In this document: one piece after another, positions 8,053 to 46,474 of the stretch | How the letters are laid out: each line of letters begins with the position of its first letter | How positions within the stretch are numbered: position 1 is the first letter of the stretch | Source: an uncultured Gammaproteobacteria bacterium | GTDB lineage: Bacteria; Patescibacteriota; Patescibacteriia; Magasanikbacterales; UBA922 | Direction: 5' to 3' | Length of the DNA: 64,000 bases | NCBI GenBank assembly: GCA_964522405.1 | Contig: CAZFTR010000001.1 | Coordinates: forward strand, 116,686 to 180,685 | Program-made: the position numbers and the translations under genes | Notes under the pieces: model-generated | What the model was told of the DNA's origin: nothing | What the model saw: the letters and a program-made list of their open reading frames with translations, nothing else | The model's database searches: none

Positions 8053-8931
8053 ATGAATGCTGAGGATAGTTTGCTAAATTCAATTGCAGCAGAATTGGTT
8101 ATTGATTCAATTGTTGTTGATGACAAAAAAATTAATTTTGTAGTTGCTGGGCATGGTCCTGATTTACTGCTTTTGCATGGGGCTAATATTGGTTGGGGAC
8201 AATGGTATAAAAATATAGCTGTTTTTTCAAAAAAATTTAGAGTTTATGCTATTGATTTGCCAGGCTCAGTAGGTTCTTCTCCTGTAAACTACTCAGATTT
8301 TGATCTAAATAGAGATTTGCTGGAAATAGTGGAGAAATTTATACTTGAAAAAAAACTAAAAAAACCAGTGATTGTAGGCCATTCAATAGGTGCCTGGATA
8401 GCCGCTTCAATTGCAGTTAGAGGTAAAATAGATCTTAAATCATTAGTTCTGGCACATCCTATAGGATTTTCTAAAAAAACCCCAATTAAGCAAATTCCAC
8501 TTTCAATAAAATTTATAGCAAAGTTTATCTCTAAGTTTCTGTTTAAACCTACCAAAATCAATCTAGAAAAATTTATAAGAAGTGAAATTAAACAAAAAAA
8601 ATCAATTGATCCTATTTTTGTTGATTATTATTTTGAATCAGTTAATAAAAATGAGTTATCGCATCCTTTTTTATTTATAAGTTCTCTGATGAAGCCTTTT
8701 AGGTTAAACAAACAGCTAAATTTAGTTGATGATCTTCAGAAAATAAAAAAACCAACACTAATTTTGTTTGGAAAAGATGACAAATTGGTAAAACCAAGAT
8801 ATAATTATAGCAATGCTAGTAAAATTCCCAATTCTAAGATAAAAGTTTTTGATTCTGTAGGTCATGTTTCTCCAATAGAGGCTGCAGAAGAATTTAATCG
8901 CATAGTTTTAAATTTTGCCATGCAAAGTTAA
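8053..8931 (+). CDS. Alpha/beta-fold hydrolase
   Basis: HG oxyanion motif (LLLHGANIGW), nucleophile elbow VGHSIGAW (GxSxG), C-terminal His region (VGHVSPIE). Confidence 0.7.
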   Translation: MNAEDSLLNSIAAELVIDSIVVDDKKINFVVAGHGPDLLLLHGANIGWGQWYKNIAVFSKKFRVYAIDLPGSVGSSPVNYSDFDLNRDLLEIVEKFILEKKLKKPVIVGHSIGAWIAASIAVRGKIDLKSLVLAHPIGFSKKTPIKQIPLSIKFIAKFISKFLFKPTKINLEKFIRSEIKQKKSIDPIFVDYYFESVNKNELSHPFLFISSLMKPFRLNKQLNLVDDLQKIKKPTLILFGKDDKLVKPRYNYSNASKIPNSKIKVFDSVGHVSPIEAAEEFNRIVLNFAMQS

Positions 8932-11958: not shown

Positions 11959-12041
11959 GCGCGAGTGGTGGAACGGTAGACACGCAGGCTTGAGGGGCCT
12001 GTGCTCGCAAGGGTGTGGAGGTTCAAATCCTCTCTCGCGCA
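11959..12041 (+). tRNA. tRNA-Leu (anticodon GAG), type II with a long variable arm
   Basis: Hand-folded: acceptor GCGCGAG/CTCGCGC, 3-bp D stem, anticodon stem CAGGC/GCCTG with loop TTGAGGG, long variable arm, T arm GGAGG-TTCAAAT-CCTCT, discriminator A. No encoded CCA. Confidence 0.8.
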
Positions 12042-12097
12042 CAAAAAAAGCAAGGTTTCTGGCCTTGTTTTATTATTTACGAGATAAATTGGGAGTC

Positions 12098-12136
12098 GGG
12101 CGACGCGTCTGAGGGGAACCTCAGACGCGTCGCCAC
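12098..12136. repeat. Perfect 16-bp GC-rich hairpin (GGCGACGCGTCTGAGG-GGAA-CCTCAGACGCGTCGCC) at the distal edge of island 2
   Basis: Read directly; marks the AT/GC boundary next to the tRNA-Leu. Confidence 0.6.
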
Positions 12137-12422
12137 ACTCGCCGTCCTTGCCTGCGCTGTTGCGCAGACCCGCGTGGTTGGGGCGCCGTGCACCCCTTCC
12201 TTGCCTGGCCGCCGAAGCGACCTGTCGGTGCCCGGTATGGTACCGGAGCACTCCTGGCGTCGAAGCGCTCATCGTGGTGTCTCGCCGTTGCGATTCACCG
12301 GAGTCGGCGCGCTGGCGTGCGCCATTCTCGAGATGACCCTTGCAGTCGGTGCCGTCAGCAGGTGACGGCGGTTCCGTTGCCTTGAGCGATCATCTGTGCC
12401 CCCGAAGAGGCCTTCGGCGTGG

Positions 12423-13286
12423 CTACCAGCTGAAGCAGAAGTCGCTGCTCGTCGCCGTGTAGCCCGCCTCGTCGCAGCAGCCCGCGGTCACCCCGTTCGG
12501 GTTGTCGCCGCCCGCGCCGTAGTCGGTGTTCACGTCCTCGTTGGTCGCCGCCGTCACGTTCTCCGCCGCCGCGGTGGCCGTCTGGTTCAGGTTGTGCGGG
12601 AAGTCGCCCGTCGCAGCCGTCGCCGTGTTGGTCATGCCCGAGTTGCCAGTCTCCACCGTCTCGCCGCCGCCCGCGCCGTAGTCGGTGTTGCCCAGGTTGG
12701 CCTTGTTCGCGTCGAAGTCCGCCGTACCGCCGGTGTCGTTCGCCGCGTTCGCGCCGTAGTCGGTGTTCACCACCATCTCGATCTGGGTCGCGCCGTAGTC
12801 CACCAGGAAGGGGATGTCCACAGCCAGCGTGGTGTCCACCCGCATCAGGATCGCGGTCGCGCCGTGCTCGCCGTAGTTGTCCAGCATGGTCGCCCAGATC
12901 GCCGTCGCGTTCTCCGTCGCTGCACCCGCGTTGTCGTGCATCCACTGCCAGCCGTCGAAGGCCACCGTCTCGCGCGCCGCGCCGTAGTCGGTGTTGGTGC
13001 CCATGATGAGGTGCGCCAGCTCGTCGTCGGTCAGGGCCGCCTCCCGGTTCATGGCGAACCAGTTGTTGGCCGCGTCCAGCAGAACCCGGTTGCTGTTGCC
13101 GTCGTCGACGAAGGTCAACAGCAGGTTGCCGTTGAAGTCCACGTCCACCGTCAGGGTGGTGTGGGCCGGGGCGTCGACCTGATCGATGGTCGGCGTGTCC
13201 GGCTCGGCAGCCGCGATGCTGGTGGGCAGCACCAGCAGAAGCAGGACCGCGAATGCGGCCGTCAGGAACGAAAGTCTCCGTCTCAT
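12423..13286 (-). CDS. Secreted protein with six copies of an N(T)DYGA motif; high-GC codon usage
   Basis: N-terminal signal peptide (MRRRLSFLTAAFAVLLLLVLPTSIAAAEP). Repeated GTNTDYGAA, NTDYGANA, NTDYGAGG (x2), VDYGAT, DNYGEHGA. C-terminal Cys cluster CCDEAGY...FCFSW. RBS GGAGG sits 10 nt before the ATG. Third codon positions are almost all G/C, unlike the flanking genes. Confidence 0.7.
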   Translation of the reverse strand: MRRRLSFLTAAFAVLLLLVLPTSIAAAEPDTPTIDQVDAPAHTTLTVDVDFNGNLLLTFVDDGNSNRVLLDAANNWFAMNREAALTDDELAHLIMGTNTDYGAARETVAFDGWQWMHDNAGAATENATAIWATMLDNYGEHGATAILMRVDTTLAVDIPFLVDYGATQIEMVVNTDYGANAANDTGGTADFDANKANLGNTDYGAGGGETVETGNSGMTNTATAATGDFPHNLNQTATAAAENVTAATNEDVNTDYGAGGDNPNGVTAGCCDEAGYTATSSDFCFSW

Positions 13287-13351
13287 CTTAGGAATTCCTC
13301 CACAAGGTCATCAACTTCCCGCGCCAGGTTTGGTTCGGGATTGCATTATCC

Positions 13352-13918: not shown

Positions 13919-13921
13919 ATG

Positions 13922-14318
13922 CCTTGTCCATTAAATAAGCCGAATTCTGTATCCTTGCAAGCAAGGTAATGATCATTTCTCTGGTTCCAGTGTTGCCACT
14001 AGAATCTAACGAGCTAACTTTTCGAATTCTGAAATTCAGAAAACGCTGCTCTTTCTCCAGGTAGGGTTTACCACCCTGACATAATGTCAGGTAGTATGGT
14101 AGCTTTTGACTCGAGATCAAAAACATCCATACTCTTTTCACCTTTCATTTTGCGAAGCAAAATTAGTATAGTCTCTGCGGCACTTTCCCGTCCATACTTG
14201 TCACCAAGCCGGAGGTGGGCGTTACCCACTACCATGACCCCGAAGAACTTCGGGGGGAGTTCGGACTTTCCTTCCAGCTCCCAAAAGGAGCCAGGCGATC
14301 ATTTATAATGAACAAGAC
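13922..14318 (-). ncRNA. rnpB: RNase P RNA (bacterial type)
   Basis: On the minus strand: GGAAGGAAAGTCCGAACTCC (CR-I/P4 5' strand), GGTGAAAAGAGTATGG, and ACAGAATTCGGCTTAT (CR-V/P4 3' strand). The 5' and 3' ends pair as P1 (GTCTTGTTCATTATAAAT with ATTTAATGGACAAG). Confidence 0.75.
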
Positions 14319-33219: not shown

Positions 33220-36200
33220 TTGCTGATTTTTATGTTTAAAAATCAAAATAGAAAATTAAAAACCTCATTGATAATACTGTTATCAAGTTTTGTTATTTTG
33301 GTTCCGGTTCTTGCCGGTTTACTAAAAATTGATCAGGCTCATGCTCAGGCCGCTGCAGCAGCAAAAGCAGCAGCAAAAGTTGCCACAGAAGCAGCATCAG
33401 GAGCAGCAAATTCAGCTCCGGCAGTGCCAACTCATGAGTTGAGTAGTGTTCCGAAGAAAATGCAAAAAATAGAAGATACTCTAGACGATACTTTTTTATC
33501 TACAGGACTTTCAGCTCTTATTAGTGGAGCTTCATATTTTTTAAACCGCCTTGCTTATGATGGTGCTAGGTGGATTGCTTCGGGTGGAAAAGGGCAGGGA
33601 GCACTTGCTTTTCAAGATGGATTTGGAGAGTACATCTTAAAAGTTGGAGGAGACAGTGTTGCTGATGCTGTTCAGCAGTTGGGAAATCCCTATGGATTAA
33701 ATCTCTGTAAACCCTCAAATTTAGATGTGCAGGTTTACCTGCAACTAGGATATAGAAAAGTTTATGATGGGCTTGGTGGAGAAGGTGGTCCTAAACCAAA
33801 ATGTTCATGGTCAGAGCTCAAGGATAAAATTGAATTTCAAACTTCAGGCGACGGAGTGCGATATTTTGGAGACACTATTGTCGAAGGTTTCCAAAACTCT
33901 TTTAGAGTTGAAGATAGTGATTTTGGAATTGCACTTGGAGCAGCTGGACAGCTAGACAGAATATATGCCCAAAAACAACAAGAAGCAGAGGGTGAACAAT
34001 TGGTTGGTGAAGGGTTTAAGCCACTTAAGAGTATGTTGTCTGGAAAAACTCTAACTCCGGCACAGATAATAAAAGAAGAAGCAAAATCTATTACTGCCAA
34101 ACATCAGGGTCAGATGACGGCTAATCAGATATCTGGAGTTTATGGCTCAGGAAGTATTGAGGCTCTGGTGGGTGCTGCTTCAATTTTTTTGACTACACTT
34201 ATATCTGATCTTTCCAAAAATATTTTAACTGATGGTTGGTTGACAGATCCTGGTTCAGGTGGAGGGGGTAGTTTATCTTCAAATACAGAAGTTGTAATCA
34301 ACGAATTTGCTTCAGCCATAAACCAAAATAGAAGAGCTGCAGAAAATGCCTTTAAATTTTTGTTTACAGCAGTTCCTGTTAAGCAGAGTTCCAGTTATCC
34401 GCTTTTGGATGATTTTGCCTCATGTCCTGATGATCCTGCTTTAAACCATCCTAAATTAACAAATTGTGTTATTGACCGAGCCTTTAGAGAAGCAATAGAT
34501 CGTGGAAACCAGGGGAGTAGTTTGACTATAAGAGAAGCCATGCTAAAGGAAAACGGAGAACTTCTCCACGGAGGTTGGCCTCTAATATCTCCTCTGAGAG
34601 AAGAAGAACATACAGAAGTAAAAGATTGTTATAGAAATGGATATTGCTACTCAAATATACAGAAATTGAGAAAAGCTCGTATCCTTCCTCTTGGTTTTGA
34701 GATCGCAGCCCTTCGTTCTGATCCGGATCAGCCCTGGACTCTTAAGCAGGTTGTAGATGGATTCAACGATTGTGCGGTTGATCCTGATTCTGGAAATATT
34801 GTCCAAAGTTCAAAAAAACCTTTTTGTCATTTGATTGATCCAAATTGGATTATACGCTTACCTGATCCGCGTTGTGAATCACTTGTTTATGGGCCAAATT
34901 TGATTTCCAATGCTGCGCCTACAAGACATAGTGAATGTGCTGATATTTCTACTTGTTTACTTGAAGATGAAAATGGCCAATGTATTGGTCAATATGGTTA
35001 TTGTCTAAAAGAAAAAAATGTCTGGAATATGCCGGGTCAATCTTGCCCTGCTCAGTTTAGCACTTGTGACACTTATACCAATACTAAGACTGGGAAAATA
35101 GAAAGCTTTTTATCAAGAACTGTAGACTATGATCAATGTACTAGTGATGCTGCTGGCTGTAGAGCATATAGTATTTACCAGGAAGACGGTGCATGGAGAA
35201 ATAGTAGTCAAACAGATGAGCTTTTAAAAACCAAAGGAGAGGCGCAAACCATGTATTTTGGAAAACTGGCAAGCCATGCAACTTGTCCTATTGATGTTGA
35301 TTTAAATGCTGATGGTTGTTCTGCATTTCTTCAGGTAACTTTTGACAGCGAAGTTGGTAATTATCAGAAAATAGCAGCTGCCACACCTCTTTATATGCAA
35401 AAGGCTCCAAATTATCTAGGTTGTTATGATACTGATTTATCTACCAAAGAAATTATAGATTGGCCAATTTCAGAAACTGATTTAACCCTTCTGACTGATA
35501 GACCTGAACAATGTGCAGACTATGCTCAGGTTTGTGTAGAAGATGAAGCAGGTTGTAGAAAATATCGCGCAGCTGAATCCGGAGTTCAAGACGTGGTTGG
35601 TATTGTGGGAGCAAATTCTTGTCCTGCTGAATGCGTAGGTTATGATACTTTCAAACAGGAAGAAAGTAATTTTGAACCTTCAATATTCCCAATGTATTTT
35701 ATTGCTGACGGTGTTGGGTCTAGAAGTTGCCCAGGACAGTATTCCAGCTGTTCAGAATTTACCAATATTGGCGCTGCCGGAGAAGGTGGAGAAGAGCTTG
35801 AGTATTTTGTTGATATTAAATATTGTGAAAAACCAGAAGAGGACAATGAAAAAACCTATTATTCTTGGGAAGGATCTGACAGTGCTGGATATGTTTTGAA
35901 AGTTCACAAAATGAAACAAATTGATCAAGAGGAATATACTTCTTATATTTTTAAAGTGGGTCAAGCAATTCAATTTAATCCTGGAGATAATTTAAGTTTT
36001 TATGAGATTGGATCACCGGCATATGCCAAAGATTCAGTAGAAAACTTAGAAGAATATTATCATGCTTGTAATGAGGAAAATTATAAGCAACTCATAAATG
36101 GAGAAAATCAGTTAGGAGATATAGACGAAGGTTGTGCTGCAATTTATGATAATGATGGAAATATTTATTATAGAATTTTATCAGAAACTGTAACTGTATC

Positions 36201-39200
36201 TGATCAATGTACACCTTATAGAAAAACTAATACTTATCTTGAATTGGATTCAGATTTAAATACTAGTGAACTTTGTTCATACAAATCAGGACTTTGGTCA
36301 GATGCTAATCTCAGTTGTGAGAGATGTTTCAATGGCGGAGAATATCTAGATGGGTCTTGTGTTTATTGGACTATTCCAAGTGAGTCTCTTTCATGTCAAG
36401 GTCCTGCAGGACAAGAAAATTTGTACAATGGTTGTCGAACTTATACTGGAAATGCAGTAAATGATCCTGTTCAGAAAATATTCTTTGATTTTGAACCTCA
36501 GCCATCTGATGATGATCCTGATGGTTTGAACAATGCCAAAGATGGTTGGTCTGTAGGAGAAATTACTCTTGACGCACAGCAAGTGGGACTTCATTCATTG
36601 CAAATTGATTCTGGTATTGTTGCTTTAGATGTGCCTGCTGAGATATTTACTGAGGATAAATGGTATGAATTAACTTTTTGGGCTAGAAGCGCTGTTGAAC
36701 AAAACCTAGTTGTGAAACTGATTCAGATTGCTCAGGATGTTGGCAATTTCAATTCTAATCCAAATATAGAAGGTGGGGAGATCCCAGTTAAAATAAATAC
36801 CAATTGGCAGGAATATAAATTAGGTCCGGTTCAATTTGCTGGAAGTACTGACTTGGAGGTGACGGCTATGTTCCAGGCAGTTTCTCTTGGGGTGAGTAGT
36901 GCTTATTCAATTGATAATGTTCGTATAGTGGAAGTTCCAAAATTTCACCGCATTAAAAATTCATGGCAACAAAAAGATACTGGTCCACTTGGTGAAGAGG
37001 TTGTTTTGGATGTTCCTTTGCTCTGTGACACTACACCTACTGATCCGTTCCCAGGTGAACATCTTGGCTGTAGTGCATATACGGACAAGACTGCAGATCC
37101 TGATCTGCCAGTCTATACTTCTGGATTTGAAAAATTGTGCAGAGTCAAAGCAGAAGGTTGTCGTCCTATAGTAGATACTTTTAATACAGTGAGCCATGAA
37201 GATCCGGGCAATCAAGATAATACCTTAACTCATGTATACAATGCATGGTGTGAGGAATTGGCAGAGGACATTTGTCAGGTTAAACACATTGATCAGGTAT
37301 TGGGAGAATGTCAGGTTGGAAAAGGTAAAAATGGTTGTTATATTCCAAAAATTGTCATTCCTGCCGGTGTGGAATTCAAAGATTTGTTAAATACCACAGA
37401 TTCAACAGTGGTTGTACCTGCTGATACAGAGGAAACTACACCAATTTATCTAACCTACAATACTGAGTATGCATGTTCTTCCAGCTTTATGGGTTGTAAA
37501 GCTGGTGCTCTTGAAGAGCAATCTCTACCAACAGAAAATCAAATTTCCTATGAGTTTAGTGAGCAAATGGTCTATGATAATCCGACTTTTTATGAACAAA
37601 CTCTTTGTAAATCAGAGGAGTTAGCTTGTGAAGAATACCGACATGGTAACAGTTTGGCTTACTTCAAAGATCCATATCTTACTGGTTCCAAACTGTGTAA
37701 ATATCGAGAAAATTTAGACTCAGGTGAGAACTATGGATGGTTTATGGAGGGTATAGGAAAATGTACTGGAACAGAAGATCTCTGTAGTTCAAGTGATGAT
37801 TGTTCTGAGGATGTTGCTTGTGATCTTGAGATAGATGTTCCTTGTTATGATAATTATCTGCAGGCTGGTGGAGAAAATGGCATTTGGTCAAATGATGCCT
37901 TATTTCATCCAATAACAGGAGAGAGTTTGTATGATGGTTTTGTTGGATTATGTGAATCACAATATAATAATTGTACTGAATATTTGGATCCACAGGATAG
38001 TTCTGGAGCTGATCCAGATGGTAAACCTTATTACGTTATAGCAGACAACCAATTGATTTCCGGTCAGTCTGAGTGTGCCGGACAGGTTAGTTTGCACGAG
38101 GGTTGTGTCTTGTTTGATCAAACAGACAACCCAAATAAGTTTTATGACAGTGAAGCAAGTTATAAGAAAAGCGCTGCTACAGATAATCCAAAATATCAAC
38201 CGGTTACACCAATTACCAGTGGTAATCTGGACGCAAATGTAGTATTGAAAGTTGAAGCTAATAGAAGCTGTAGCGAATGGTTGTCATGTAAAAATAGTAT
38301 CAAGATTACTGATGAAAATGGAATTCCAAAAAATGTTTGTAATGAATTCAAAGCTTGCAAGGAATCAGATGGTTCAGCGGGCTGTGCTAATTGGGCTGTT
38401 GATTCTGCTTACGAAACAGAGCCTTTGACTCAAGAGAAATATATTAAGCGTGATACATCCTGGTATGGAGAAGAATACACAGGATATTCACTGTTTGATA
38501 AATATCAGATTAGTAGTATTGCTTATGTTTCTGTAGAAGACGAGCCATTTTCATATATGGCTTACGAATTACATCCTGGAGTTGCTCCAAATAATAACTG
38601 TATAGGACAAGCTGCTTGGAGTAAATGTGGTTTTGATAATGGTGGTAGATGTCATAATGAAAAATGTATCTATACTATGAGCGGTCCTTTTTTACCTGAC
38701 TCTGATACAAAAGATGAAATCGTGGCAGAGTTAGAGGGCGGAACTTGTAAGGCTTTCCCAGAGGATAGTTCACCATATGATTTTAGTTTTGCAGAGCAAC
38801 CAACGCTTCATGAGACTGCCTATGATGACGGGCCTGATAGATATACTTTTGAAACCAAGAAAAAAGGATATGGTGGAGCAAATATTTGTCAGAGTGGAGA
38901 GAATTGCTCCTGTGAGTACAAGAAAATAGCTTATGGTAATGGTACAACTGATTACTTGAGCTATAGTGAAGATAAATATGCCAAAGGTGTTTGTACGGGA
39001 GGAGATTTTGCTCAGAAATCTTGTAGAATAAATTCTGACTGTGGTGCGGGTGGTTCTTGTAGTAGGATCACGAGTATTGAAACTCATATAGGTTTGAGGG
39101 GTCTGTGTATGGAATATGATTTGAGCAGACCAATAGACAAAGATAAGGATATTTACCCGTGTCTCACTTGGTTGCCGGTGGATACTGCGGCGACAGTTCT

Positions 39201-42200
39201 TGATCCATATAACAATGATCCAAAAGCAGGTTATCTACCACGGCTTGATGCCAGTGTTACTCTAGCCAATGGTTTTAAGAGTGAGTATGGACAAGTTTAT
39301 TGTAGCGAGGCATCAGGAAATGCCAAGGGTGCCTATGACATAGATGGATACAGAGAGATAACAAATGCAATTAACCAATCTACAGTTCCAAAATTTTCAG
39401 CCATATGTGATGGTAATCCAGATACTTTTGTTTGTAACAAGGACCTGTATAGTAATATGTTCAATGAGTATGGAGATTATATCTTTGATGAGAAAAAATG
39501 GGTAAGTATTACTGGTAATCCAGAGATAGCTTATGATGTTGGTGATGCAAATGCAGAATTTCCATTTACAGAAAAACTGCCTGTATTGCGTGATCCATTT
39601 AATGCTGGTTGGGGTGATAATTTTTCTTCTTTTAATACTTGGGAAGATGTGGAAGGATCCAAAACCACTATAATGCAAGGATTTTTTGAATGGCAAACTC
39701 GTCCACCGGCTACACCTGGTTCAGATGTGCTTACTGGCGCTAGTTTGTATCCTGATGATGACCAGAACAAGAATATATATAATTATCCGGATTTTGTCTA
39801 CTCCTTGGTTCAGCAATGGGCCTGGCATGGTGGTATGTATGGCAGAGGGTTGGCAGAAACCAAGGAATCCAAGAATATTATTTTGAATACCAAGAGTATA
39901 TCTGATCTGTGTGGAGATTTGATAGGTAAGGGGCAGCTATATACCGGTTGTGCAGACCTCTATAATTTTGCTGTAAATGCTCCAACTAAAACTCAGCAGG
40001 TTGAGTTATTAAAAGCTCTTCTTAACGCTCGAGTCAGTAGAATTTTAGCTGAAGATACCGAGGAAATTAAGCAGCAAGAAATAGTCAATCCAAATTCAAC
40101 TGTATTATTTACCTCAGCTCTTTATTTTAGGGATTACTTATATACTTCTTTGAAAAAAGTAGAAGAGATTGCGCCTGTAAAGGGTCTTGAAAGTAAAGGT
40201 CAGGATAAGAATAAATGGTATCTAGAAGATGAAGAGATGACCGAAGACTTGAATGGGGATGGTAAGGTTGATTATAAAGATATCACTGATCCTGAGTCTA
40301 TATTTTTGAGAGTAAGTTATGAACCGGTAGATTTTCATAGTTATACTCCGGGAACAATTGAAAAGGTCTTTGATTTTACAGGCGGCAGTAATAAAAGCAC
40401 AGATAAAGATGATCCAAATAATTATTTTTACAAGAGCTCAATTTGGGGGCATGCTACCAAGAAACTACGTGGTTATCATCCGGTCTTTTACAATTATGAA
40501 GCAGCAATAGAGGTTGTAGAAGATGAGATCAGTAAATTGCACTATGGACCAATGATGGCTCCAAATGGGATTGAAAGAGTTCTTACTATTGATTTTGATA
40601 CTCTTAATAATAGTCTGCCGCTTGAGTCAATCACAGCAAATGATGGGGTTTTGTACGATCTTAACTATTATTCAGAGGCTGTAAAAGGAGTTTATGTTTT
40701 TAAGGTAAGCCCAAGAACAGGTCCTAGAGCAGGTTGGTCACGATATATTATTATATCTATGGAAGACGGGGGATTTAGCGAAGATAAACCAGTGACTGAT
40801 TTGAGTCTTGATTTCTTTGTGGAGCTTCTTGACGAGTGGGCTGGAGATTCAAAATCCAAGTGGTCAAAGGGTGTGGATTGGATTGACGAGGATTTGGGAA
40901 ATAGATCACTTATTTGGGTCTGGGCTGATTTTGATGAGAAAGGTAATATGTCCGATGATTTCATAAAATCAAACTACCAAGCTTGGTATCAAAATACTAA
41001 AAGTATTTTTGTCTACAGTTCAGAGTTCAATGCCAAAGATGGAAAAACTCCTTTCTTGGCAGTTGTAGCAGAGACACATCCAAGATGTACAGAATTCCAG
41101 GTTGTTTATGATAGTGAAACCGAAGGGCTGGGCGGTTCAACTAACAAGGCTTGGACTGATAGAGTTTGGAATTATTCTAATTATCAACCGGGAACTACCT
41201 TTTTCTTTGGTAATAAATTAACTAAGCCGGCCTTTTCTCGACCTTTTGGTTCATTGCAATTAACTGCTGATTCTTTTGAAGGTACAAATGCATCAGGTTT
41301 GAGTTGGGAAGATGCCAGACGCAGATACACCTTTAGATCACCTGAGTTTGATGGTATACCTTATTCATGTGACGCAACAGCTCTAGAGTCAGAGCAGACC
41401 GCATTCAATCAAGGTAACTTTTTTAATGAAGGTTTGATGTATGATAATCCAGATTTTATTGGGCTTATAGAGTGGGGTGAACAAAAATGTATAGCGTCTT
41501 ATGGTGGAAATAATGAACTATATAACACCATGTCTTTTGTTGAGGCTGAAAATGGTATAGATATGCTATCTCAATTATTTAAAAAATCATTTACCTCTAT
41601 TAGAGCAAATGAACAGGGAGAAAATAAATTTGGTATTAAAGGAGCAATTGATCCACAGAATTCACTCTTTGTGAAGGAAGTTGGATTTGATGGTTCATCT
41701 ACTGCTGAGGCAGGTCTAATTCCTCCACAAATATATTCACTAAATCCAACCACTTGTTATGATTATACCGGTGGTAAAATTAATTGTACTATTGGAGAAG
41801 CAGATAATATAACCATAAACAGAAGAAATTTCATGTTAGAAGATTATGATGATGATGGATTTTATGATGAAGATCTAAATGGTGATGACTTGCCTGATCT
41901 GATAATTGCAGAAAATTCATTTACTGCTGTTGCTCATTTCTTTGCTTATGCTGATCATAACCGCATGCCTATTCGAAGAGTAATGGTTGATTGGGGAGAT
42001 GGAGATATTTCAAATCAAGATAGAAAGGGAATGTATAAGAATAGAAAACCATATTGTATTGGTGTTGGTAATGAGCAGAGTCCAGATATTGGAGAGTGTT
42101 CTCAGTCTGAGCAATTAACTTGTCTCAAAGATTCAGATTGTCCTTTGGCAGGAGAAACTTGTGATTTGAATGCAGCCAGGCATTTTGGAAATTCAGATAG

Positions 42201-42624
42201 AGCTTGTGTGCCGGAATATTTTGAATTTATGCATGGTTATTCTTGTTCGCAGTTTGATCTTCAATTGAGTGAGCTTGATAATGTTGATTTCTTGGAATAT
42301 ATGATTGAGTTTGATCAGCTTGATGAGTATCTGGGTAGGCCGGACGTAGAGCAAACTCTTAAGAATAGGGGTTATACTCCAGAAGTAAATACCAAGGTCT
42401 GTGTATTCCAGCCAAAAGTTCAGATATTGGATAATTGGGGGTGGTGTAATGGAACGTGTGATTATAAAGGTCCTGGAAGTGGGTGCTATTCCGAAGATGA
42501 GCTTAGTGGAGATTTTTGCGAAGTGAGTTCAGACAAGCCTTGGACAGGTTATGGTGAAGAGACAGTAGACAGTCTGGGTAATACGATTAGAAGTGGTTCA
42601 ATTATAGTAATTCCGACATCATAA
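33220..42624 (+). CDS. Giant (3134 aa) cysteine-rich predicted cell-surface protein
   Basis: Single uninterrupted 9.4-kb ORF with an N-terminal TM/signal (LIILLSSFVILVPVLAGLL), an Ala-rich linker, then a Cys- and Asp/Gly/Asn/Tyr-rich extracellular sequence with no catalytic motifs. Confidence 0.7.
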   Translation: MLIFMFKNQNRKLKTSLIILLSSFVILVPVLAGLLKIDQAHAQAAAAAKAAAKVATEAASGAANSAPAVPTHELSSVPKKMQKIEDTLDDTFLSTGLSALISGASYFLNRLAYDGARWIASGGKGQGALAFQDGFGEYILKVGGDSVADAVQQLGNPYGLNLCKPSNLDVQVYLQLGYRKVYDGLGGEGGPKPKCSWSELKDKIEFQTSGDGVRYFGDTIVEGFQNSFRVEDSDFGIALGAAGQLDRIYAQKQQEAEGEQLVGEGFKPLKSMLSGKTLTPAQIIKEEAKSITAKHQGQMTANQISGVYGSGSIEALVGAASIFLTTLISDLSKNILTDGWLTDPGSGGGGSLSSNTEVVINEFASAINQNRRAAENAFKFLFTAVPVKQSSSYPLLDDFASCPDDPALNHPKLTNCVIDRAFREAIDRGNQGSSLTIREAMLKENGELLHGGWPLISPLREEEHTEVKDCYRNGYCYSNIQKLRKARILPLGFEIAALRSDPDQPWTLKQVVDGFNDCAVDPDSGNIVQSSKKPFCHLIDPNWIIRLPDPRCESLVYGPNLISNAAPTRHSECADISTCLLEDENGQCIGQYGYCLKEKNVWNMPGQSCPAQFSTCDTYTNTKTGKIESFLSRTVDYDQCTSDAAGCRAYSIYQEDGAWRNSSQTDELLKTKGEAQTMYFGKLASHATCPIDVDLNADGCSAFLQVTFDSEVGNYQKIAAATPLYMQKAPNYLGCYDTDLSTKEIIDWPISETDLTLLTDRPEQCADYAQVCVEDEAGCRKYRAAESGVQDVVGIVGANSCPAECVGYDTFKQEESNFEPSIFPMYFIADGVGSRSCPGQYSSCSEFTNIGAAGEGGEELEYFVDIKYCEKPEEDNEKTYYSWEGSDSAGYVLKVHKMKQIDQEEYTSYIFKVGQAIQFNPGDNLSFYEIGSPAYAKDSVENLEEYYHACNEENYKQLINGENQLGDIDEGCAAIYDNDGNIYYRILSETVTVSDQCTPYRKTNTYLELDSDLNTSELCSYKSGLWSDANLSCERCFNGGEYLDGSCVYWTIPSESLSCQGPAGQENLYNGCRTYTGNAVNDPVQKIFFDFEPQPSDDDPDGLNNAKDGWSVGEITLDAQQVGLHSLQIDSGIVALDVPAEIFTEDKWYELTFWARSAVEQNLVVKLIQIAQDVGNFNSNPNIEGGEIPVKINTNWQEYKLGPVQFAGSTDLEVTAMFQAVSLGVSSAYSIDNVRIVEVPKFHRIKNSWQQKDTGPLGEEVVLDVPLLCDTTPTDPFPGEHLGCSAYTDKTADPDLPVYTSGFEKLCRVKAEGCRPIVDTFNTVSHEDPGNQDNTLTHVYNAWCEELAEDICQVKHIDQVLGECQVGKGKNGCYIPKIVIPAGVEFKDLLNTTDSTVVVPADTEETTPIYLTYNTEYACSSSFMGCKAGALEEQSLPTENQISYEFSEQMVYDNPTFYEQTLCKSEELACEEYRHGNSLAYFKDPYLTGSKLCKYRENLDSGENYGWFMEGIGKCTGTEDLCSSSDDCSEDVACDLEIDVPCYDNYLQAGGENGIWSNDALFHPITGESLYDGFVGLCESQYNNCTEYLDPQDSSGADPDGKPYYVIADNQLISGQSECAGQVSLHEGCVLFDQTDNPNKFYDSEASYKKSAATDNPKYQPVTPITSGNLDANVVLKVEANRSCSEWLSCKNSIKITDENGIPKNVCNEFKACKESDGSAGCANWAVDSAYETEPLTQEKYIKRDTSWYGEEYTGYSLFDKYQISSIAYVSVEDEPFSYMAYELHPGVAPNNNCIGQAAWSKCGFDNGGRCHNEKCIYTMSGPFLPDSDTKDEIVAELEGGTCKAFPEDSSPYDFSFAEQPTLHETAYDDGPDRYTFETKKKGYGGANICQSGENCSCEYKKIAYGNGTTDYLSYSEDKYAKGVCTGGDFAQKSCRINSDCGAGGSCSRITSIETHIGLRGLCMEYDLSRPIDKDKDIYPCLTWLPVDTAATVLDPYNNDPKAGYLPRLDASVTLANGFKSEYGQVYCSEASGNAKGAYDIDGYREITNAINQSTVPKFSAICDGNPDTFVCNKDLYSNMFNEYGDYIFDEKKWVSITGNPEIAYDVGDANAEFPFTEKLPVLRDPFNAGWGDNFSSFNTWEDVEGSKTTIMQGFFEWQTRPPATPGSDVLTGASLYPDDDQNKNIYNYPDFVYSLVQQWAWHGGMYGRGLAETKESKNIILNTKSISDLCGDLIGKGQLYTGCADLYNFAVNAPTKTQQVELLKALLNARVSRILAEDTEEIKQQEIVNPNSTVLFTSALYFRDYLYTSLKKVEEIAPVKGLESKGQDKNKWYLEDEEMTEDLNGDGKVDYKDITDPESIFLRVSYEPVDFHSYTPGTIEKVFDFTGGSNKSTDKDDPNNYFYKSSIWGHATKKLRGYHPVFYNYEAAIEVVEDEISKLHYGPMMAPNGIERVLTIDFDTLNNSLPLESITANDGVLYDLNYYSEAVKGVYVFKVSPRTGPRAGWSRYIIISMEDGGFSEDKPVTDLSLDFFVELLDEWAGDSKSKWSKGVDWIDEDLGNRSLIWVWADFDEKGNMSDDFIKSNYQAWYQNTKSIFVYSSEFNAKDGKTPFLAVVAETHPRCTEFQVVYDSETEGLGGSTNKAWTDRVWNYSNYQPGTTFFFGNKLTKPAFSRPFGSLQLTADSFEGTNASGLSWEDARRRYTFRSPEFDGIPYSCDATALESEQTAFNQGNFFNEGLMYDNPDFIGLIEWGEQKCIASYGGNNELYNTMSFVEAENGIDMLSQLFKKSFTSIRANEQGENKFGIKGAIDPQNSLFVKEVGFDGSSTAEAGLIPPQIYSLNPTTCYDYTGGKINCTIGEADNITINRRNFMLEDYDDDGFYDEDLNGDDLPDLIIAENSFTAVAHFFAYADHNRMPIRRVMVDWGDGDISNQDRKGMYKNRKPYCIGVGNEQSPDIGECSQSEQLTCLKDSDCPLAGETCDLNAARHFGNSDRACVPEYFEFMHGYSCSQFDLQLSELDNVDFLEYMIEFDQLDEYLGRPDVEQTLKNRGYTPEVNTKVCVFQPKVQILDNWGWCNGTCDYKGPGSGCYSEDELSGDFCEVSSDKPWTGYGEETVDSLGNTIRSGSIIVIPTS

Positions 42625-42636
42625 AAATTTTCAAAA

Positions 42637-42666
42637 ACAAAAAATGACCTACAAGGTCATTTTTTA
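42637..42666. terminator. Bidirectional terminator (AAAAAATGACC-tacaa-GGTCATTTTTT), copy A
   Basis: Perfect stem with A/T runs on both sides. Confidence 0.65.
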
Positions 42667-42697
42667 TTTAAAATATTTTTGATTTTTTTAATAAAAA

Positions 42698-42798
42698 GGG
42701 CCGTGCCGAAGCGCGTCCACGAGTTCACCGAAGTGAGACTTGTGGGCGCGCTTGGCTTGGCGTGCGACTGCTGAGAAAACGAGTTCGACTGCCGTGTA
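42698..42798 (-). other. Conserved GC-rich structured 3' element, copy A (nested about 60-nt helix with a CGAA tetraloop)
   Basis: gccgaagcgcg / ccacgag / tcac-CGAA-gtga / cttgtgg / cgcgcttggc nested pairing; about 75 nt identical to copy B at 43657-43761. Confidence 0.5.
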
Positions 42799-43326
42799 CT
42801 ACGGCTTGAGCTCCAGCGTGTAGTCGGGGCCGTCGTTGTCGAAGATCGTGATCTCGATTCCCTCGGAGGTCTTGATGACCTCGTAGTACCAGCCTGCCGG
42901 CTTGTCGAGGGGGAAGACCACAGCGGCCTCCTCGGGGTTGTCGTGCCAGGTGATCAGCGGACCGGTGATCATGGGCTTCTTGCCGAAGCCGATCATGGTC
43001 ACCTCACAGGTGTGACCACCGAACCCGTTCTCGATCATCTTGGTCGTGATCTCCTCGCCCCAGCCCTTGAAGTGCTTCCACTTGCCCGCGATGTTCGGGC
43101 AGATGTCCACCACGGGGATGGGCTCAGGGGCAGGCTCTTCTTCCGGGGTGGGCTCTTCAGGTCGCGGGATCGTGTCCGGCTCGACGAACCGGGGCTGTTG
43201 GGCTGTGTCTTCTGGGATCTGATCTCGGTTAGTGCTCCGAGGGTAGTTGGAGCTACAGCTGGTAAAAAGAAAAGCCACGAGCGTGGCCACGAGAATGAGG
43301 ATGTTTTTCCTCTCCATGGTGGCCAC
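42799..43326 (-). CDS. Lipoprotein paralog A with a conserved C-terminal domain; high-GC codons
   Basis: Lipobox LFTSC, Pro/Glu-rich linker, conserved block VVDICPNIAGKWKHFKGWGEEI...GFGGHTCEV...WHDNPE...GWYYEV.KTSEGIEIT. RBS AAGGAGGTG upstream. Confidence 0.7.
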   Translation of the reverse strand: MATMERKNILILVATLVAFLFTSCSSNYPRSTNRDQIPEDTAQQPRFVEPDTIPRPEEPTPEEEPAPEPIPVVDICPNIAGKWKHFKGWGEEITTKMIENGFGGHTCEVTMIGFGKKPMITGPLITWHDNPEEAAVVFPLDKPAGWYYEVIKTSEGIEITIFDNDGPDYTLELKP

Positions 43327-43500
43327 CTCCTTGCAGTAGCAGCCGGAGCTATAGTGGAATTTCCACTACACTTCTAGCTACCACTAGCAGGAGTTTTTTG
43401 TCGCACGCTATAGATCTTGCCTTTTGGCTAGGTTTAGCCAAGCAGACAAAGATATTGAAAAGAGCTTTTAGTCATCAAAGACTGATAAATATTAGACTAT
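43327..43500 (-). promoter_or_regulatory. Conserved 5' leader, copy A, with palindromes (TAGTGGAA-A-TTCCACTA; GCTAGTGGTAGC; TTGGCTAAACCTAGCCAA) and an upstream TTGACA-17-TCTAAT promoter-like site
   Basis: Nearly identical to 44278-44450. The palindromes were read directly; the promoter call is weaker (the -10 is non-consensus). Confidence 0.45.
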
Positions 43501-43586
43501 ATTTTTGTAATTTTGTCAAGTTTTCTATAGTAAAATAAAACTATTAGAAATGGTCAAATTAGGGTAATCCTTGTTTTTCAAATTTA

Positions 43587-43616
43587 AACAAAAAATGACC
43601 TGGTGGGTCATTTTTT
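43587..43616. terminator. Bidirectional terminator, copy B (AAAAAATGACC-tggtg-GGTCATTTTTT)
   Basis: Same stem as copy A but with a different loop. Confidence 0.6.
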
Positions 43617-43656
43617 GTTTAAGTAATTTTTCACATTTTTTAAAAAATCATTTAAG

Positions 43657-43761
43657 GGGCCGTGCCGAAGCGCGTCCACGAGTTCACCGAAGTGAGACTT
43701 GTGGGCGCGCTTGGCTTGGCGTGCGACTGCGAGGAAAAAACGAGAGTTCGACTGCCGTGTA
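43657..43761 (-). other. Conserved GC-rich structured 3' element, copy B
   Basis: See copy A. Confidence 0.5.
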
Positions 43762-44277
43762 CTACGGCTTGAGCTCGGCCCAGATGTCGGGCTTGGCCTC
43801 GTTGTCGAATCGCGTGATCTCGATCCCCTCGGAGGTCTTGACGACCTCGTAGTACCAGCCCACCGGAGCCGGAATCGGGAAGACCACGGCGGTCTTCTCG
43901 GGGTTGTCGTGCCAGGTTGAAGCCGGACCGGGGAACATCGGCTTCTTGCCGAAGCCCGTGATGGTGACCTCGCAGGTGTGGCCACCGAACCCGTCCTCGA
44001 TCATCTCGGTCACGATCTCCTCACCCCAGCCCTTGAAGTTTTTGTACTTGCCCGCGATGTTCGGGCAGATGTCCACCACGGGGGTGGACTCTTCGGGGGC
44101 AGGATCCGCGGGCTTGTCGAGCCGCGGGGTCTCGACCGGCTCGACGAACCGGGGTTCCTGTGCGGCGTCTTCCGGGACGTAGTCCCGATCTCCCCCACGC
44201 TGAGGGGTGAAGCCGCAACCGGTGGAAAGCAAAGCCACGAGCGTGGCGACCATGAGCAGATTGCTCTTCTTCATCAT
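43762..44277 (-). CDS. Lipoprotein paralog B (about 65-70% identical to A); high-GC codons
   Basis: Lipobox LSTGC, Pro-rich linker, and the same conserved C-terminal domain as copy A. Confidence 0.7.
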   Translation of the reverse strand: MMKKSNLLMVATLVALLSTGCGFTPQRGGDRDYVPEDAAQEPRFVEPVETPRLDKPADPAPEESTPVVDICPNIAGKYKNFKGWGEEIVTEMIEDGFGGHTCEVTITGFGKKPMFPGPASTWHDNPEKTAVVFPIPAPVGWYYEVVKTSEGIEITRFDNEAKPDIWAELKP

Positions 44278-44450
44278 GGCGCCACCTCCTTGCAGTAGCA
44301 GCCGGAGCTATAGTGGAATTTCCACTACACTTCTAGCTACCACTAGCAGGAGTTTTTTGTCGCACGCTATAGATCTTGCCTTTTGGCTAGGTTTAGCCAA
44401 GCAGACAAAGATATTGAAAAGAGCTTTTAGTCATCAAAGACTACTATCCA
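44278..44450 (-). promoter_or_regulatory. Conserved 5' leader, copy B
   Basis: See copy A. Confidence 0.45.
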
Positions 44451-44713
44451 TTAAGTATTAGACCATGTTTTACCAGTTTTGTCAAGCTCTCTATAGTGAA
44501 AAGGTTAATAATTTGTGTATAAAAAGATCAGTTTTTGCTTAATTTAGCCTAGATTTTGATTTTAATAAAATTTAATCTAGGACTTGCATAGTTGCAAAAA
44601 AGCCTGTTTTTGCTAAAATAGAAGGACTTTTATAGAGTTGGTTTATAGTCAGTAATTAGTGAAAAATTTCCTAAACTACTAACTGTCAACTGTTAACTAC
44701 AAACTATTTAAAT

Positions 44714-46474
44714 ATGTACAAAACAAACACATGTGGAGAATTAAGAAAAGAGGCTGTTGGGCAAGAAGTTACCTTATCGGGTTGGGTTCATAAGAGAAGA
44801 GATCTTGGTGGTCTGGTTTTTGTTGACTTGCGAGATAGATATGGTATTACTCAGATTGTTTTTAATCCTGATCAGGTTGAGGATTTTTCTATTGCTGAAA
44901 GTTTGAAATATGAATTTGTCATAAAAATTTCCGGAACTGTTGCAGAGAGATCAGCTGAGACTGTTAATCAGGAAATTGAAACTGGCCAGATTGAAGTTCA
45001 AGCCAAAACTGTAGAAGTTCTAAGCAAAGCCAAAGCAATGCCTTTTGAGATCTTTGAAACCAAAAAAGGTGAAGAAGATGAAGAGCTTCGTCTTAAGTAT
45101 AGATTCCTAGAACTTCGCAGACAAAAACTAAAAAATAATATTTTGTTTCGTTCAAAGATGACTAAATATATTCGGGATTTTATGGATAAGAATGATTTTG
45201 TACATATTGATACTCCTATTCTTACAGTTAGTTCTCCAGAGGGTGCTCGAGATTTTCTTGTTCCAAGTAGAATTCATCTTGGAAAATTTTATGCGCTTCC
45301 TCAAGCTCCACAACAATACAAACAACTTCTAATGGTGGCTGGTTTTGATCGATATTATCAAATTGCCGCTTGCATGCGTGATGAGGATCCTCGGGCTGAC
45401 AGATCGCCGGGAGAATTTTATCAGCTTGATTGTGAAACCAGTTTCCATACTCAAGATGAATTTTTTGAACTTATGGAACCTCTTTTTGTTGAGCTTACTG
45501 AGAAAGTGGCTGGCAAAAAAGTTAAACAATCTCCTTTTCCTAGAATTCCTTTCAAAGAAATTATGGAAACCTATGGAAGTGATCGGCCTGATTTACGTTA
45601 TGATTTAAAATTACAAGAAGTTACTGATTGGGCCAAGACCACTGAGTTCAAAGTTTTTGCAAGTGCTGATCATGTTCGTGCACTTCATGTGCCGGGCGGA
45701 GCAGAGTTTAGCAGAAAAGAAATTGATGATCAGTTCACTGATGTGGCAGTTCGAGCTCATGCCAAAGGCCTTGCTTGGATGAAATTTGTAGATGGAAAAT
45801 TTGAAGGTAATATTGCTAAATTTTTCAATGAGGAAAAATTAGATCAATTAAGAGAATTATTAAATCCAGAAGAGGGGAGTATTATATTTTTTGGGGCAGA
45901 TGAATGGCAAGTTTCTTGTGAGGCTCTTGGTGCTGTTCGTGCTTTGGTTGCCAAGAAACAAAATTTAGCTGATCCAAACTTAATAGCCTGGGCTTGGATT
46001 GTTGATTTTCCTATGTATGAAAAAGACAAGGAAACTGGAAGAATAGATTTTGGGCATAATCCTTTTTCTATGCCTCAAGGTGGTATGGAATCTCTAGAAA
46101 CAAAAGATCCACTTGATATTCTTGCTTTTCAATATGATATTATAGCAAATGGACTTGAACTTAGCTCTGGGGCTGTTAGAAACAAAGATCCGGAAATTAT
46201 GTACAAGGCTTTTGAGATTGCCGGCTATTCAAAAGCTGATGTTGATGCAAAATTTGGTCACATGATAAAAGCTTTTGAATTTGGAGCTCCACCCCATTGT
46301 GGATTTGCTCCAGGTATTGAGAGGTTGGCCATGCTTCTTCTTGGAGAAGAAAATATTCGTACTGTTGTGCCCTTTCCGAAAAACCAAAAAGCAGAAGAAC
46401 CTATGATGGGTAGTCCAAGTGAGGTTGATGAGGCTCAATTAAAAGAACTTGGACTTAAAATTTATAAAAAATAA
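44714..46474 (+). CDS. aspS: Aspartyl-tRNA synthetase (bacterial type)
   Basis: N-terminal OB anticodon-binding domain (VTLSGWVHKRRDLGGLVFVDLRDRYGITQIVF), class II motifs (FRNEG-like ...ACMRDEDPRADRSPGEFYQLD..., GGMESLETKD, C-terminal GFAPGIERL). Confidence 0.88.
   Translation: MYKTNTCGELRKEAVGQEVTLSGWVHKRRDLGGLVFVDLRDRYGITQIVFNPDQVEDFSIAESLKYEFVIKISGTVAERSAETVNQEIETGQIEVQAKTVEVLSKAKAMPFEIFETKKGEEDEELRLKYRFLELRRQKLKNNILFRSKMTKYIRDFMDKNDFVHIDTPILTVSSPEGARDFLVPSRIHLGKFYALPQAPQQYKQLLMVAGFDRYYQIAACMRDEDPRADRSPGEFYQLDCETSFHTQDEFFELMEPLFVELTEKVAGKKVKQSPFPRIPFKEIMETYGSDRPDLRYDLKLQEVTDWAKTTEFKVFASADHVRALHVPGGAEFSRKEIDDQFTDVAVRAHAKGLAWMKFVDGKFEGNIAKFFNEEKLDQLRELLNPEEGSIIFFGADEWQVSCEALGAVRALVAKKQNLADPNLIAWAWIVDFPMYEKDKETGRIDFGHNPFSMPQGGMESLETKDPLDILAFQYDIIANGLELSSGAVRNKDPEIMYKAFEIAGYSKADVDAKFGHMIKAFEFGAPPHCGFAPGIERLAMLLLGEENIRTVVPFPKNQKAEEPMMGSPSEVDEAQLKELGLKIYKK

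Follow-up and report, generated by a model that had tools for sequence, protein, structure and literature searches.

The stretch of DNA analysed here (hereafter the window) comprises 64,000 nucleotides (nt) of contig CAZFTR010000001.1 of assembly GCA_964522405.1, an uncultured bacterium placed in the Magasanikbacterales (Candidate Phyla Radiation, CPR). On its minus strand lie two neighbouring lipoprotein genes, each followed by the same GC-rich, hairpin-forming element of 74 nt. The element was first pointed out in an annotation made from the sequence alone (the first-pass annotation) and is, together with the two genes that it accompanies, the subject of this study.

Both copies of the element are parts of one tandem duplication of ∼960 bp and lie 959 bp apart in direct orientation; the two occurrences are therefore not independent. 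Read along the minus strand, each unit consists of a promoter-like site, a leader of ∼165 nt, the coding sequence (CDS), a 3′ untranslated region (UTR) of ∼100 nt that includes the element, and an AT-rich terminator. The features of the locus are as follows (GC3, GC content at third codon positions).

42639–42665, both strands: AT-rich bidirectional intrinsic terminator of unit 1, AAAAAATGACC-TACAA-GGTCATTTTTT, shared with a convergent gene of 3134 codons
42698–42771, minus strand: 74-nt element of unit 1, recognised as an exact duplicate and by its fold; left edge of a GC-rich island
42760–42768 (43719–43727 in unit 2), minus strand: 3′ box, GUCGCACGC on the mRNA, a 9-nt perfect complement of the 5′ box, at the 5′ edge of the 74-mer
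42772–42780, minus strand: diverged linker between the invariant 3′ blocks, with a 4-nt indel
42781–42813, minus strand: second invariant 3′ block (final 12 nt before the stop codon, UAG itself, then 18 nt of untranslated sequence), with a small 5-bp hairpin
42799–43317, minus strand: lipoprotein gene 1, 172 residues, lipobox LFTSC, GC 60%, GC3 83%
43322–43483, minus strand: 5′ leader of unit 1; it includes the motif GCUCUUUU, one small and one long hairpin (the latter at ∼43324–43393), and the 5′ box
43400–43408 (44359–44367 in unit 2), minus strand: 5′ box, GCGUGCGAC on the mRNA, 6 nt (A6) upstream of the long leader hairpin
43491–43519, minus strand: promoter-like site of unit 1, TTGACA-N17-TCTAAT
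43590–43616, both strands: AT-rich terminator of unit 2, stem TGACC/GGTCA retained, four of five loop bases different
43657–43730, minus strand: 74-nt element of unit 2, same sequence as in unit 1
43762–44277, minus strand: lipoprotein gene 2, 171 residues, lipobox LSTGC, GC 63%, GC3 87%
44457–44485, minus strand: promoter-like site of unit 2, TTGACA-N17-TCTAAT

Both proteins have a signal peptide in addition to the lipobox, and the two signal peptides have diverged. The ratio of nonsynonymous to synonymous divergence (dN/dS) between the paralogs is 0.45, and we therefore regard the genes as real and under purifying selection. The paralog was the sole homolog returned, both from 5.8 billion clusters and from 1.84 billion representatives searched with HMMER; a Pfam search gave no match, and the AlphaFold model was too poor for use (predicted local distance difference test score, pLDDT, of 47). 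The GC3 of the neighbouring aspS gene is 22%, compared with 83–87% in the lipoprotein genes. The promoter-like motif occurs twice in the window against 0.06 matches expected; its second hexamer has a C at the position of a conserved A in sigma-70 −10 sites.

Comparison of the two units revealed complete identity in the hairpin element (74/74), the stop-codon block at 42781–42813 (33/33) and the leader, 43322–43483 being the same as 44281–44442 (162/162). Identity is 54% in the 9-nt linker, 76% (nucleotides) and 67% (amino acids) in the CDS, 63% in the promoter region, where the hexamers are retained and the spacer is altered, and 70% in the terminator region. Because neutral divergence is substantial (synonymous differences in 21 of the 108 codons that encode the same amino acid in both paralogs; four of five terminator-loop bases changed), we judged zero changes over ∼270 nt of UTR to be non-neutral. 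The 5′ invariant block starts ∼8 nt past the −10-like hexamer, the 3′ block ends at the hairpin base, which is the GC/AT boundary, and the outer edges of the blocks coincide with indels of 7–8 nt. In their extent, the invariant blocks match the untranslated mRNA as predicted from the sequence, the first reaching from about the transcription start to the Shine-Dalgarno (SD) sequence and the others lying between the stop codon and the base of the hairpin. The strict conservation of the element beside a diverged CDS, which had originally been taken to suggest function, thus holds as an observation (74/74 compared with 76%), but it does not single the element out, the 33-nt stop block and the 162-nt leader being equally invariant.

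The UAG stop codon of both lipoprotein genes lies within the loop of a conserved 5-bp hairpin, GCCGU-AGUAC-ACGGC, at 42793–42809. Some further accounts of the blocks were rejected: coding read-through of the element, as the 4-nt linker indel shifts the reading frame of the hairpin in one unit relative to the other; mutagenesis of the CDS of the type seen with diversity-generating retroelements, as the substitutions are not adenine-specific; and target-site duplications at the block edges, as the duplicated promoter and terminator explain the similarity of the flanks.

The 74-nt element and its fold

Exactly two copies of the 74-mer (GGGCCG...GACTGC) are present in the window, with 0 mismatches between them and 0 copies expected from shuffled sequences, which confirms for these 74 nt the identity originally reported. 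The site given for the element, between the CDS stop and the AT-rich terminator, also agrees with the coordinates in both units: the stop codons are at 42799–42801 and 43762–43764, and a canonical AT-rich terminator follows 30–45 nt beyond the hairpin. In unit 1 the element starts ∼30 nt past the stop codon, and the hairpin comprises ∼62 nt (42700–42761). On the mRNA, the order within the element is 5′-GCA, the box GUCGCACGC, CAA, the long hairpin with its cUUCGg loop, and GGCCC-3′; the main stem begins 3 nt downstream of the box.

Folding recovered the proposed long nested helix on both strands. The plus strand forms a single long hairpin of 27 pairs, including three G·U pairs, with two bulged G residues and one U·U mismatch. 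On the mRNA strand the hairpin has ∼24–27 bp, and the three G·U pairs of the plus strand become A·C mismatches. Fold energies with RNA parameters were −46.0 kcal/mol for the plus strand (z = −5.9) and −37.1 kcal/mol for the minus strand (z = −5.2); with DNA parameters they were −26.1 and −21.3 kcal/mol, respectively. The CGAA tetraloop described at first is correct for the plus strand, but not for the mRNA: because the lipoprotein genes are on the minus strand, we read the loop as cUUCGg, the sequence on the mRNA being C(UUCG)G.

Among the traits of an intrinsic terminator, a GC-rich sense-strand stem-loop past the stop codon is present; a consensus terminator scan called the hairpin in neither unit. 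The sequence 3′ of the stem is CC-UUUUUAUU in unit 1, in which a U5 run begins 2 nt past the stem, and CCCCUUAAAUGAUUUUUU, i.e. CCCC-UUAAAUGAUUUUUU, in unit 2.

We found no further copies of the element. In the window, blastn-short detected only the two tandem ones, and a covariance model, the kind of search that the first-pass annotation had proposed, likewise recovered only these two in the window and five other loci (136,610 bases). Within these sequences, the element thus lacks the many intergenic copies expected of a dispersed repeat, such as a repetitive extragenic palindrome or bacterial interspersed mosaic element (REP/BIME) or a miniature inverted-repeat transposable element (MITE). 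The scans of genome, metagenome and viral collections demanded exact matches, and diverged copies would escape them. Within that scope, the apical 20-mer had one chance match, in a planctomycete, among 185,579 species genomes, two unrelated matches in the JGI metagenomes and none in IMG/VR; a gapped lower-stem pattern had three chance matches in IMG/VR, all within GC-rich CDSs, and a 24-mer from the 5′ leader had none there. A blastn search with the whole cassette against plasmid and phage collections returned nothing. At the gathering threshold, Rfam identified only RNase P and four tRNAs in the whole window, and at E ≤ 10 over 42500–44750 it gave sub-threshold chance matches only.

Complementary boxes in the leader and the 3′ UTR

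The long leader hairpin (43324–43393 and 44283–44352) pairs CUCCUGC...GCAAGGAG and is predicted to sequester the SD sequence; it matches no Rfam family. On the plus strand this hairpin is followed by TTTTTT (43394–43399) and resembles a terminator for antisense read-through. The 5′ and 3′ boxes of the window, which flank each CDS, were found both as an inverted-repeat pair and by blastn-short. In shuffled sequences, a complement of this length gave p = 0.048 for the whole UTRs and p = 0.018 when only the 30 nt that precede the leader hairpin were considered; p values are given in this order throughout. The two copies of the boxes in the window are identical, and are therefore uninformative on covariation.

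Comparative evidence came from relatives identified by AspRS, which places the organism among Candidatus Magasanikbacteria; the best of them are 75–80% identical. Seven AspRS relatives were checked for synteny, P0009 by gene list only. The arrangement of a giant gene, two minus-strand genes and aspS was found only in GCA_016193335.1 (locus L010) and in further assemblies that are identical there; loci L011, L012, L018, L019/L020 and L021 do not share it. At L010, the two genes in question are GC-rich (55–68%) lipoprotein genes in a locus of 45% GC. Their products have at most faint similarity to those of the window; for one of the two, hhalign gave E = 3.7e-4 over 34 columns. Upstream of all four lipoprotein genes we found TTGACA-N17/18-TCTAMT (8788–8817 and 9649–9677 in L010), which occurs nowhere else in the window or the loci and may be a dedicated regulatory site. 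The leaders of both genomes have the motif GCTCTTTT in common, and every one of the four contains a long hairpin of at least 21 pairs, counted from dot-bracket folds, whose sequence is not conserved. From these shared features, the lipoprotein loci of the window and L010 appear to be orthologous.

In L010, each gene has a perfect complement, longer than the one in the window, between its leader and the beginning of its 3′ UTR. For gene A, GCAAGGCGUAG and CUACGCCUUGC form 11 bp (p = 0.003 and 0.0008); for gene B, AGCAAGGCGCGG and CCGCGCCUUGCU form 12 bp (p = 0.0006 and <0.0002). No other complement among 119 ORFs (open reading frames) is as long; the mean is 7.8 and the maximum of the others is 10, all of them AT-only. 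The L010 boxes keep the same place relative to the long leader hairpin as those of the window. Between genes A and B, a script counted two compensatory pairs, A-U to G-C and U-A to C-G, and the box sequences of the window and L010 are wholly different, yet pair within each genome. RNAcofold of the 5′ and 3′ UTRs placed the box helix in the minimum-energy structure for four of four genes, 11–20 kcal/mol below the separate folds (11–12 kcal/mol in the units of the window, relative to the summed energies of the two UTRs). Complementarity beyond chance and compensatory change, two of the criteria for a 5′/3′-UTR pairing module, are both observed at the level of sequence.

Possible roles of the element

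Taken together, these observations lead us to a tentative reading of the element as the distal 3′-UTR module of a minus-strand lipoprotein mRNA, composed of a box that pairs with the leader and a very stable, UUCG-capped terminal hairpin. RNA would be the functional strand. The box GUCGCACGC would pair with GCGUGCGAC in the leader of its own gene, just upstream of the hairpin that hides the ribosome-binding site. Transcription would stop at or shortly past the 3′ hairpin, with the AT-rich terminator further on, and the hairpin would act as a block to 3′-to-5′ exonucleases and so fix a stable 3′ end. Pairing of the 5′ and 3′ UTRs could close the mRNA in cis, or a fragment derived from the 3′ UTR could act in trans on both paralogous leaders. 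In either case, the pairing might tune cleavage of the leader, translation or both, as with hbs of Bacillus subtilis and icaR of Staphylococcus aureus; its effect on RNase cleavage, mRNA stability or translation is a prediction only. Of the three roles suggested in the first-pass annotation, that of a processing or stability element fits best. The 3′-UTR hairpin is unusually stable, and its conservation far exceeds that of the adjoining CDS. That the copies are perfectly identical is probably owed in part to gene conversion between the tandem units, besides selection.

hbs and icaR provide the closest parallels. hbs has a 14-bp interaction between its 5′ and 3′ UTRs (PMC5737220), and the UTRs of icaR likewise pair (PMC3868564). 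The likeness lies in a short, GC-rich stretch of the 3′ UTR that is complementary to the leader of the same gene (9 bp here, 11–12 bp in L010, 14 bp in hbs), in a structured leader and in a 3′ UTR of ∼100 nt. The icaR 3′ UTR is reported to pair with the SD region itself, whereas the pairing proposed here lies upstream of the SD-sequestering hairpin. The present case also differs from both in that it concerns an uncultured CPR bacterium and compositionally aberrant lipoprotein genes known from sequence alone. As to the hairpin, it resembles cUUCGg terminators and 3′ stabilisers in being a GC-rich UUCG stem-loop past the CDS on the sense strand, with the U5 run of unit 1 close behind the stem; it differs from such terminators in a stem two to three times the usual length, in its A·C mismatches and bulges, in the lack of a U-tract in unit 2 and in the separate AT-rich terminator.

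Several observations weigh against this interpretation. As a terminator, the hairpin is non-canonical across the two units, its U-tract being poor in unit 1 and missing beside the stem in unit 2. The opposite (plus) strand folds better than the mRNA strand, through the three G·U/A·C positions. The complement of the window, taken by itself, is of marginal significance (p = 0.048). We found no counterpart of the 74-nt hairpin in L010, and with the syntenic relative lacking it, the hairpin is, as judged from these sequences, not a conserved part of the system. Moreover, the hairpin is known as one sequence (two identical copies from one duplication), and hence without covariation. Lack of other occurrences and of covariation, which the first-pass annotation had named as grounds for doubting a function, is thus what we observed for the hairpin, whereas the box GUCGCACGC has a co-varying counterpart in the relative. 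Finally, at a neutral divergence of ∼20–35%, selection alone is unlikely to account for 0 changes in 74 + 33 + 162 nt. Gene conversion between the tandem units, which we suspect because the identity is perfect across every loop and bulge, may contribute to or even suffice for this identity, and is possibly its main cause.

The last point leads to the strongest of the alternatives, that the element has no sequence-specific function: it would be a GC-rich 3′ stem-loop of ordinary kind, either a terminator or a relic, the UTRs would have been kept identical by gene conversion or a recent partial homogenisation, and selection for two proteins would keep the CDSs apart. Copies 959 bp apart in direct orientation are an ideal substrate for conversion, perfect identity over loops, bulges and linkers is more typical of conversion than of selection at the RNA level, and the 7–8-nt indels stand at the outer block edges, where tracts would stop. 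Other GC-rich genes of the window and its relatives likewise end in unrelated GC hairpins, and the orthologous genes of the relative do without this one. Conversion must, however, have struck three separate blocks (162, 33 and 74 nt) and spared the 9-nt linker, the CDS, the promoter and the terminator, and the block edges fall at the predicted transcript start and at the hairpin base. Clustering of the synonymous differences within the CDS is only weak (p = 0.03 in a runs test and p = 0.78 for the longest identical run). In addition, the complementary boxes, which co-vary in the relative, point to function for at least part of the element. We consider this account unlikely, although it is the most serious competitor of the pairing-module reading.

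A site of recombination at the DNA level is decidedly less probable. Here, either an invertase would flip the CDS at the flanking inverted repeats and so cause phase variation, or the element would be a folded single-strand site resembling the attC sites of integrons. All four lipoprotein genes are flanked by co-varying inverted repeats, which recombination itself would keep matched, and the outer edges of the identity blocks are sharp. Phase-variable lipoprotein families with conserved 5′ regions, such as vsa, vpma and vsp, are known from Mycoplasma. The genes described here share with the families of the Mollicutes a tandem arrangement of surface lipoprotein paralogs, a reduced genome, near-identical non-coding 5′ regions beside diverged CDSs, and short inverted repeats; they differ in that both have the same orientation, their own promoters and diverged signal peptides, with no recombinase among the neighbours scanned. 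In Ureaplasma, whose mba genes belong to such families (PMC3047005), DNA-inversion systems act at short inverted repeats (PMC3047005; PMC3599477), and there as here the targets are surface lipoproteins in tandem. Against this, no recombinase was found among the flanking genes scanned (27–33 kb and 46–63 kb), all of which are housekeeping genes, including those for AspRS, ScpAB, ParAB, RelA and TopA. Five independent assemblies of the relative's species show one orientation, although as a test this is weak, and an inversion site of 9 bp would be short. In both genomes the repeat is also placed alike with respect to a leader RNA hairpin, an arrangement better explained by an RNA model.

The attC-like version of this proposal, another of the roles first suggested, was compared with the criteria for such sites: a palindrome (∼57–141 nt) past an ORF, R″ (RYYYAAC) and R′ (GTTRRRY) core sites, a strand-specific fold, and an integrase or promoterless cassettes. 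attC bottom strands fold preferentially and have bulged bases. The element agrees in size and place, being an imperfect palindrome of ∼62 nt, identical in neighbouring units, directly 3′ of an ORF. It is also superficially similar to attC bottom strands in that the plus strand, which is the template strand of the ORF, folds better and has two bulged G residues; the comparison of strands recommended in the first-pass annotation gave the plus strand the lower energy with both RNA and DNA parameters, although the asymmetry stems from the three G·U/A·C positions only. At the stem base, GGGCCGUGCC and GGCUUGGC contain no AAC...GTT pair at either end or on either strand. Neither an integrase nor a transposase was present among the scanned flanking genes, and the units are paralogs with their own promoter, leader and terminator, of which there are two copies from one duplication and none elsewhere in the collections searched. 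On the basis of the missing core sites, the absence of an integrase among the scanned genes and the paralogous units with their own promoters, we do not regard the element as an integron attC site.

A broader idea, which we likewise consider improbable, is that the invariant 5′ and 3′ blocks are the functional ends of an expression cassette that Magasanikbacteria would use for fast-evolving, GC-rich surface lipoproteins, with a dedicated promoter (TTGACA-N17/18-TCTAMT), a leader with a long hairpin and 5′/3′ closure. Its coding regions would be swapped or inverted at the boxes or the hairpin, as a cassette system other than an integron or as a means of phase variation. The high GC content would then come from very frequent recombination (biased gene conversion), from adaptation to expression in a high-GC host, or from acquisition from one.

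A plus-strand RNA as the functional molecule, be it antisense or a small RNA in its own right, with its start near 42698 and its end at the leader hairpin and TTTTTT (43394–43399), is very improbable: its fold is 9 kcal/mol better, with three G·U pairs instead of A·C, and the U6 run after the leader hairpin is terminator-like, but no conserved promoter-like site lies upstream, where the flanks differ between units, CGAA is not a special tetraloop whereas the minus-strand loop is cUUCGg, the G·U bias comes from three positions and would arise in one of eight cases by chance (our estimate), and the conservation boundaries suit a sense mRNA.

A small RNA could also be derived from the 3′ UTR of the mRNA itself, and such a role of the element is conceivable as an alternative. 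CpxQ, which originates from cpxP, is a regulatory small RNA of this kind. The element resembles it in that conservation is much stronger in the 3′ UTR than in the CDS, a single-stranded 'seed' precedes the terminal hairpin and the product of the gene is an envelope protein. The difference is that the only predicted target of the element is the leader of its own gene, and we know of no Hfq or ProQ context in CPR bacteria.

Features like the hairpin by itself are ordinary. Moderate novelty lies in the wider locus, with its putative dedicated promoter, structured leader, co-varying 5′/3′ closure and persistently GC-rich, fast-evolving lipoprotein genes in a CPR lineage. To our knowledge, almost nothing is known about post-transcriptional control in the CPR (Patescibacteria), whose members cannot yet be grown alone. 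If true, the reading as a leader-pairing module with a terminal hairpin would provide a concrete, testable CPR case in which surface lipoprotein mRNAs have a dedicated promoter, a leader that hides the ribosome-binding site, and 5′/3′ closure kept by compensatory change across genomes.

GC-rich islands and other features of the window

The window has a GC content of 36.5% and a few sharply delimited GC-rich islands, the element forming the left edge of one of them. A second island at 12050–13300 (63–69% GC) contains a minus-strand gene (12423–13286) for a secreted protein of 287 residues with NTDYGA repeats and a GC3 of 95%, which has no homolog among 5.8 billion clusters. This gene has a GC-rich 3′ UTR of ∼330 nt with a perfect 16-bp hairpin (∼12100–12135) at the island edge, adjoining a tRNA gene at 11959–12041. 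The third island (1–340, 56% GC) is cut by the start of the window and contains a minus-strand ORF of 64 codons at 110–301 (MSSLVVVDDTAGG...). A good promoter, TTGACA-N17-TATACT, lies immediately upstream of this ORF, and its 3′ region forms GC hairpins.

GC-rich orphan genes for secreted proteins or lipoproteins (GC3 ∼0.67–0.95) occur in several Magasanikbacteria of 36–45% GC, namely at 42799–44277 of the window, at 7968–9487 of L010 and at 3896–4915 of L012; in every case seen, the minus strand of the window or locus is the coding one. Because the window and L010 share the locus and the promoter motif, it seems that the high GC content has been maintained and is not a fresh import. A GC3 of 83–95% in genomes of GC3 near 22%, at a locus that looks orthologous in two lineages, is not easily explained by simple recent horizontal transfer. 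A possible analogy is provided by the 'large GC-rich genes' of Protochlamydia (PMC2216083). Chimeric assembly was rejected as the origin of the GC islands, since the junction between the 12.1–13.3 kb island and its AT-rich flank is covered at 100% identity by independent Logan contigs of two sequencing runs; the lipoprotein cassette is outside those contigs. Logan contig L007 (SRR8146441) starts at 44638, breaking between the cassette and aspS, and has no gene call for either lipoprotein. Because the Logan assembly of SRR8146441 breaks before the cassette, the tandem arrangement is documented by the NCBI assembly alone.

The gene that converges on the cassette is a giant ORF of 3134 codons (33220–42624), whose Cys-rich product has a signal peptide; a counterpart of ∼2950 residues occupies the same place in GCA_016193335.1. 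Elsewhere in the window we identified a class A RNase P RNA on the minus strand (13920–14315, 162 bits) and tRNA genes at 11959, 25392, 25555 and 55639.

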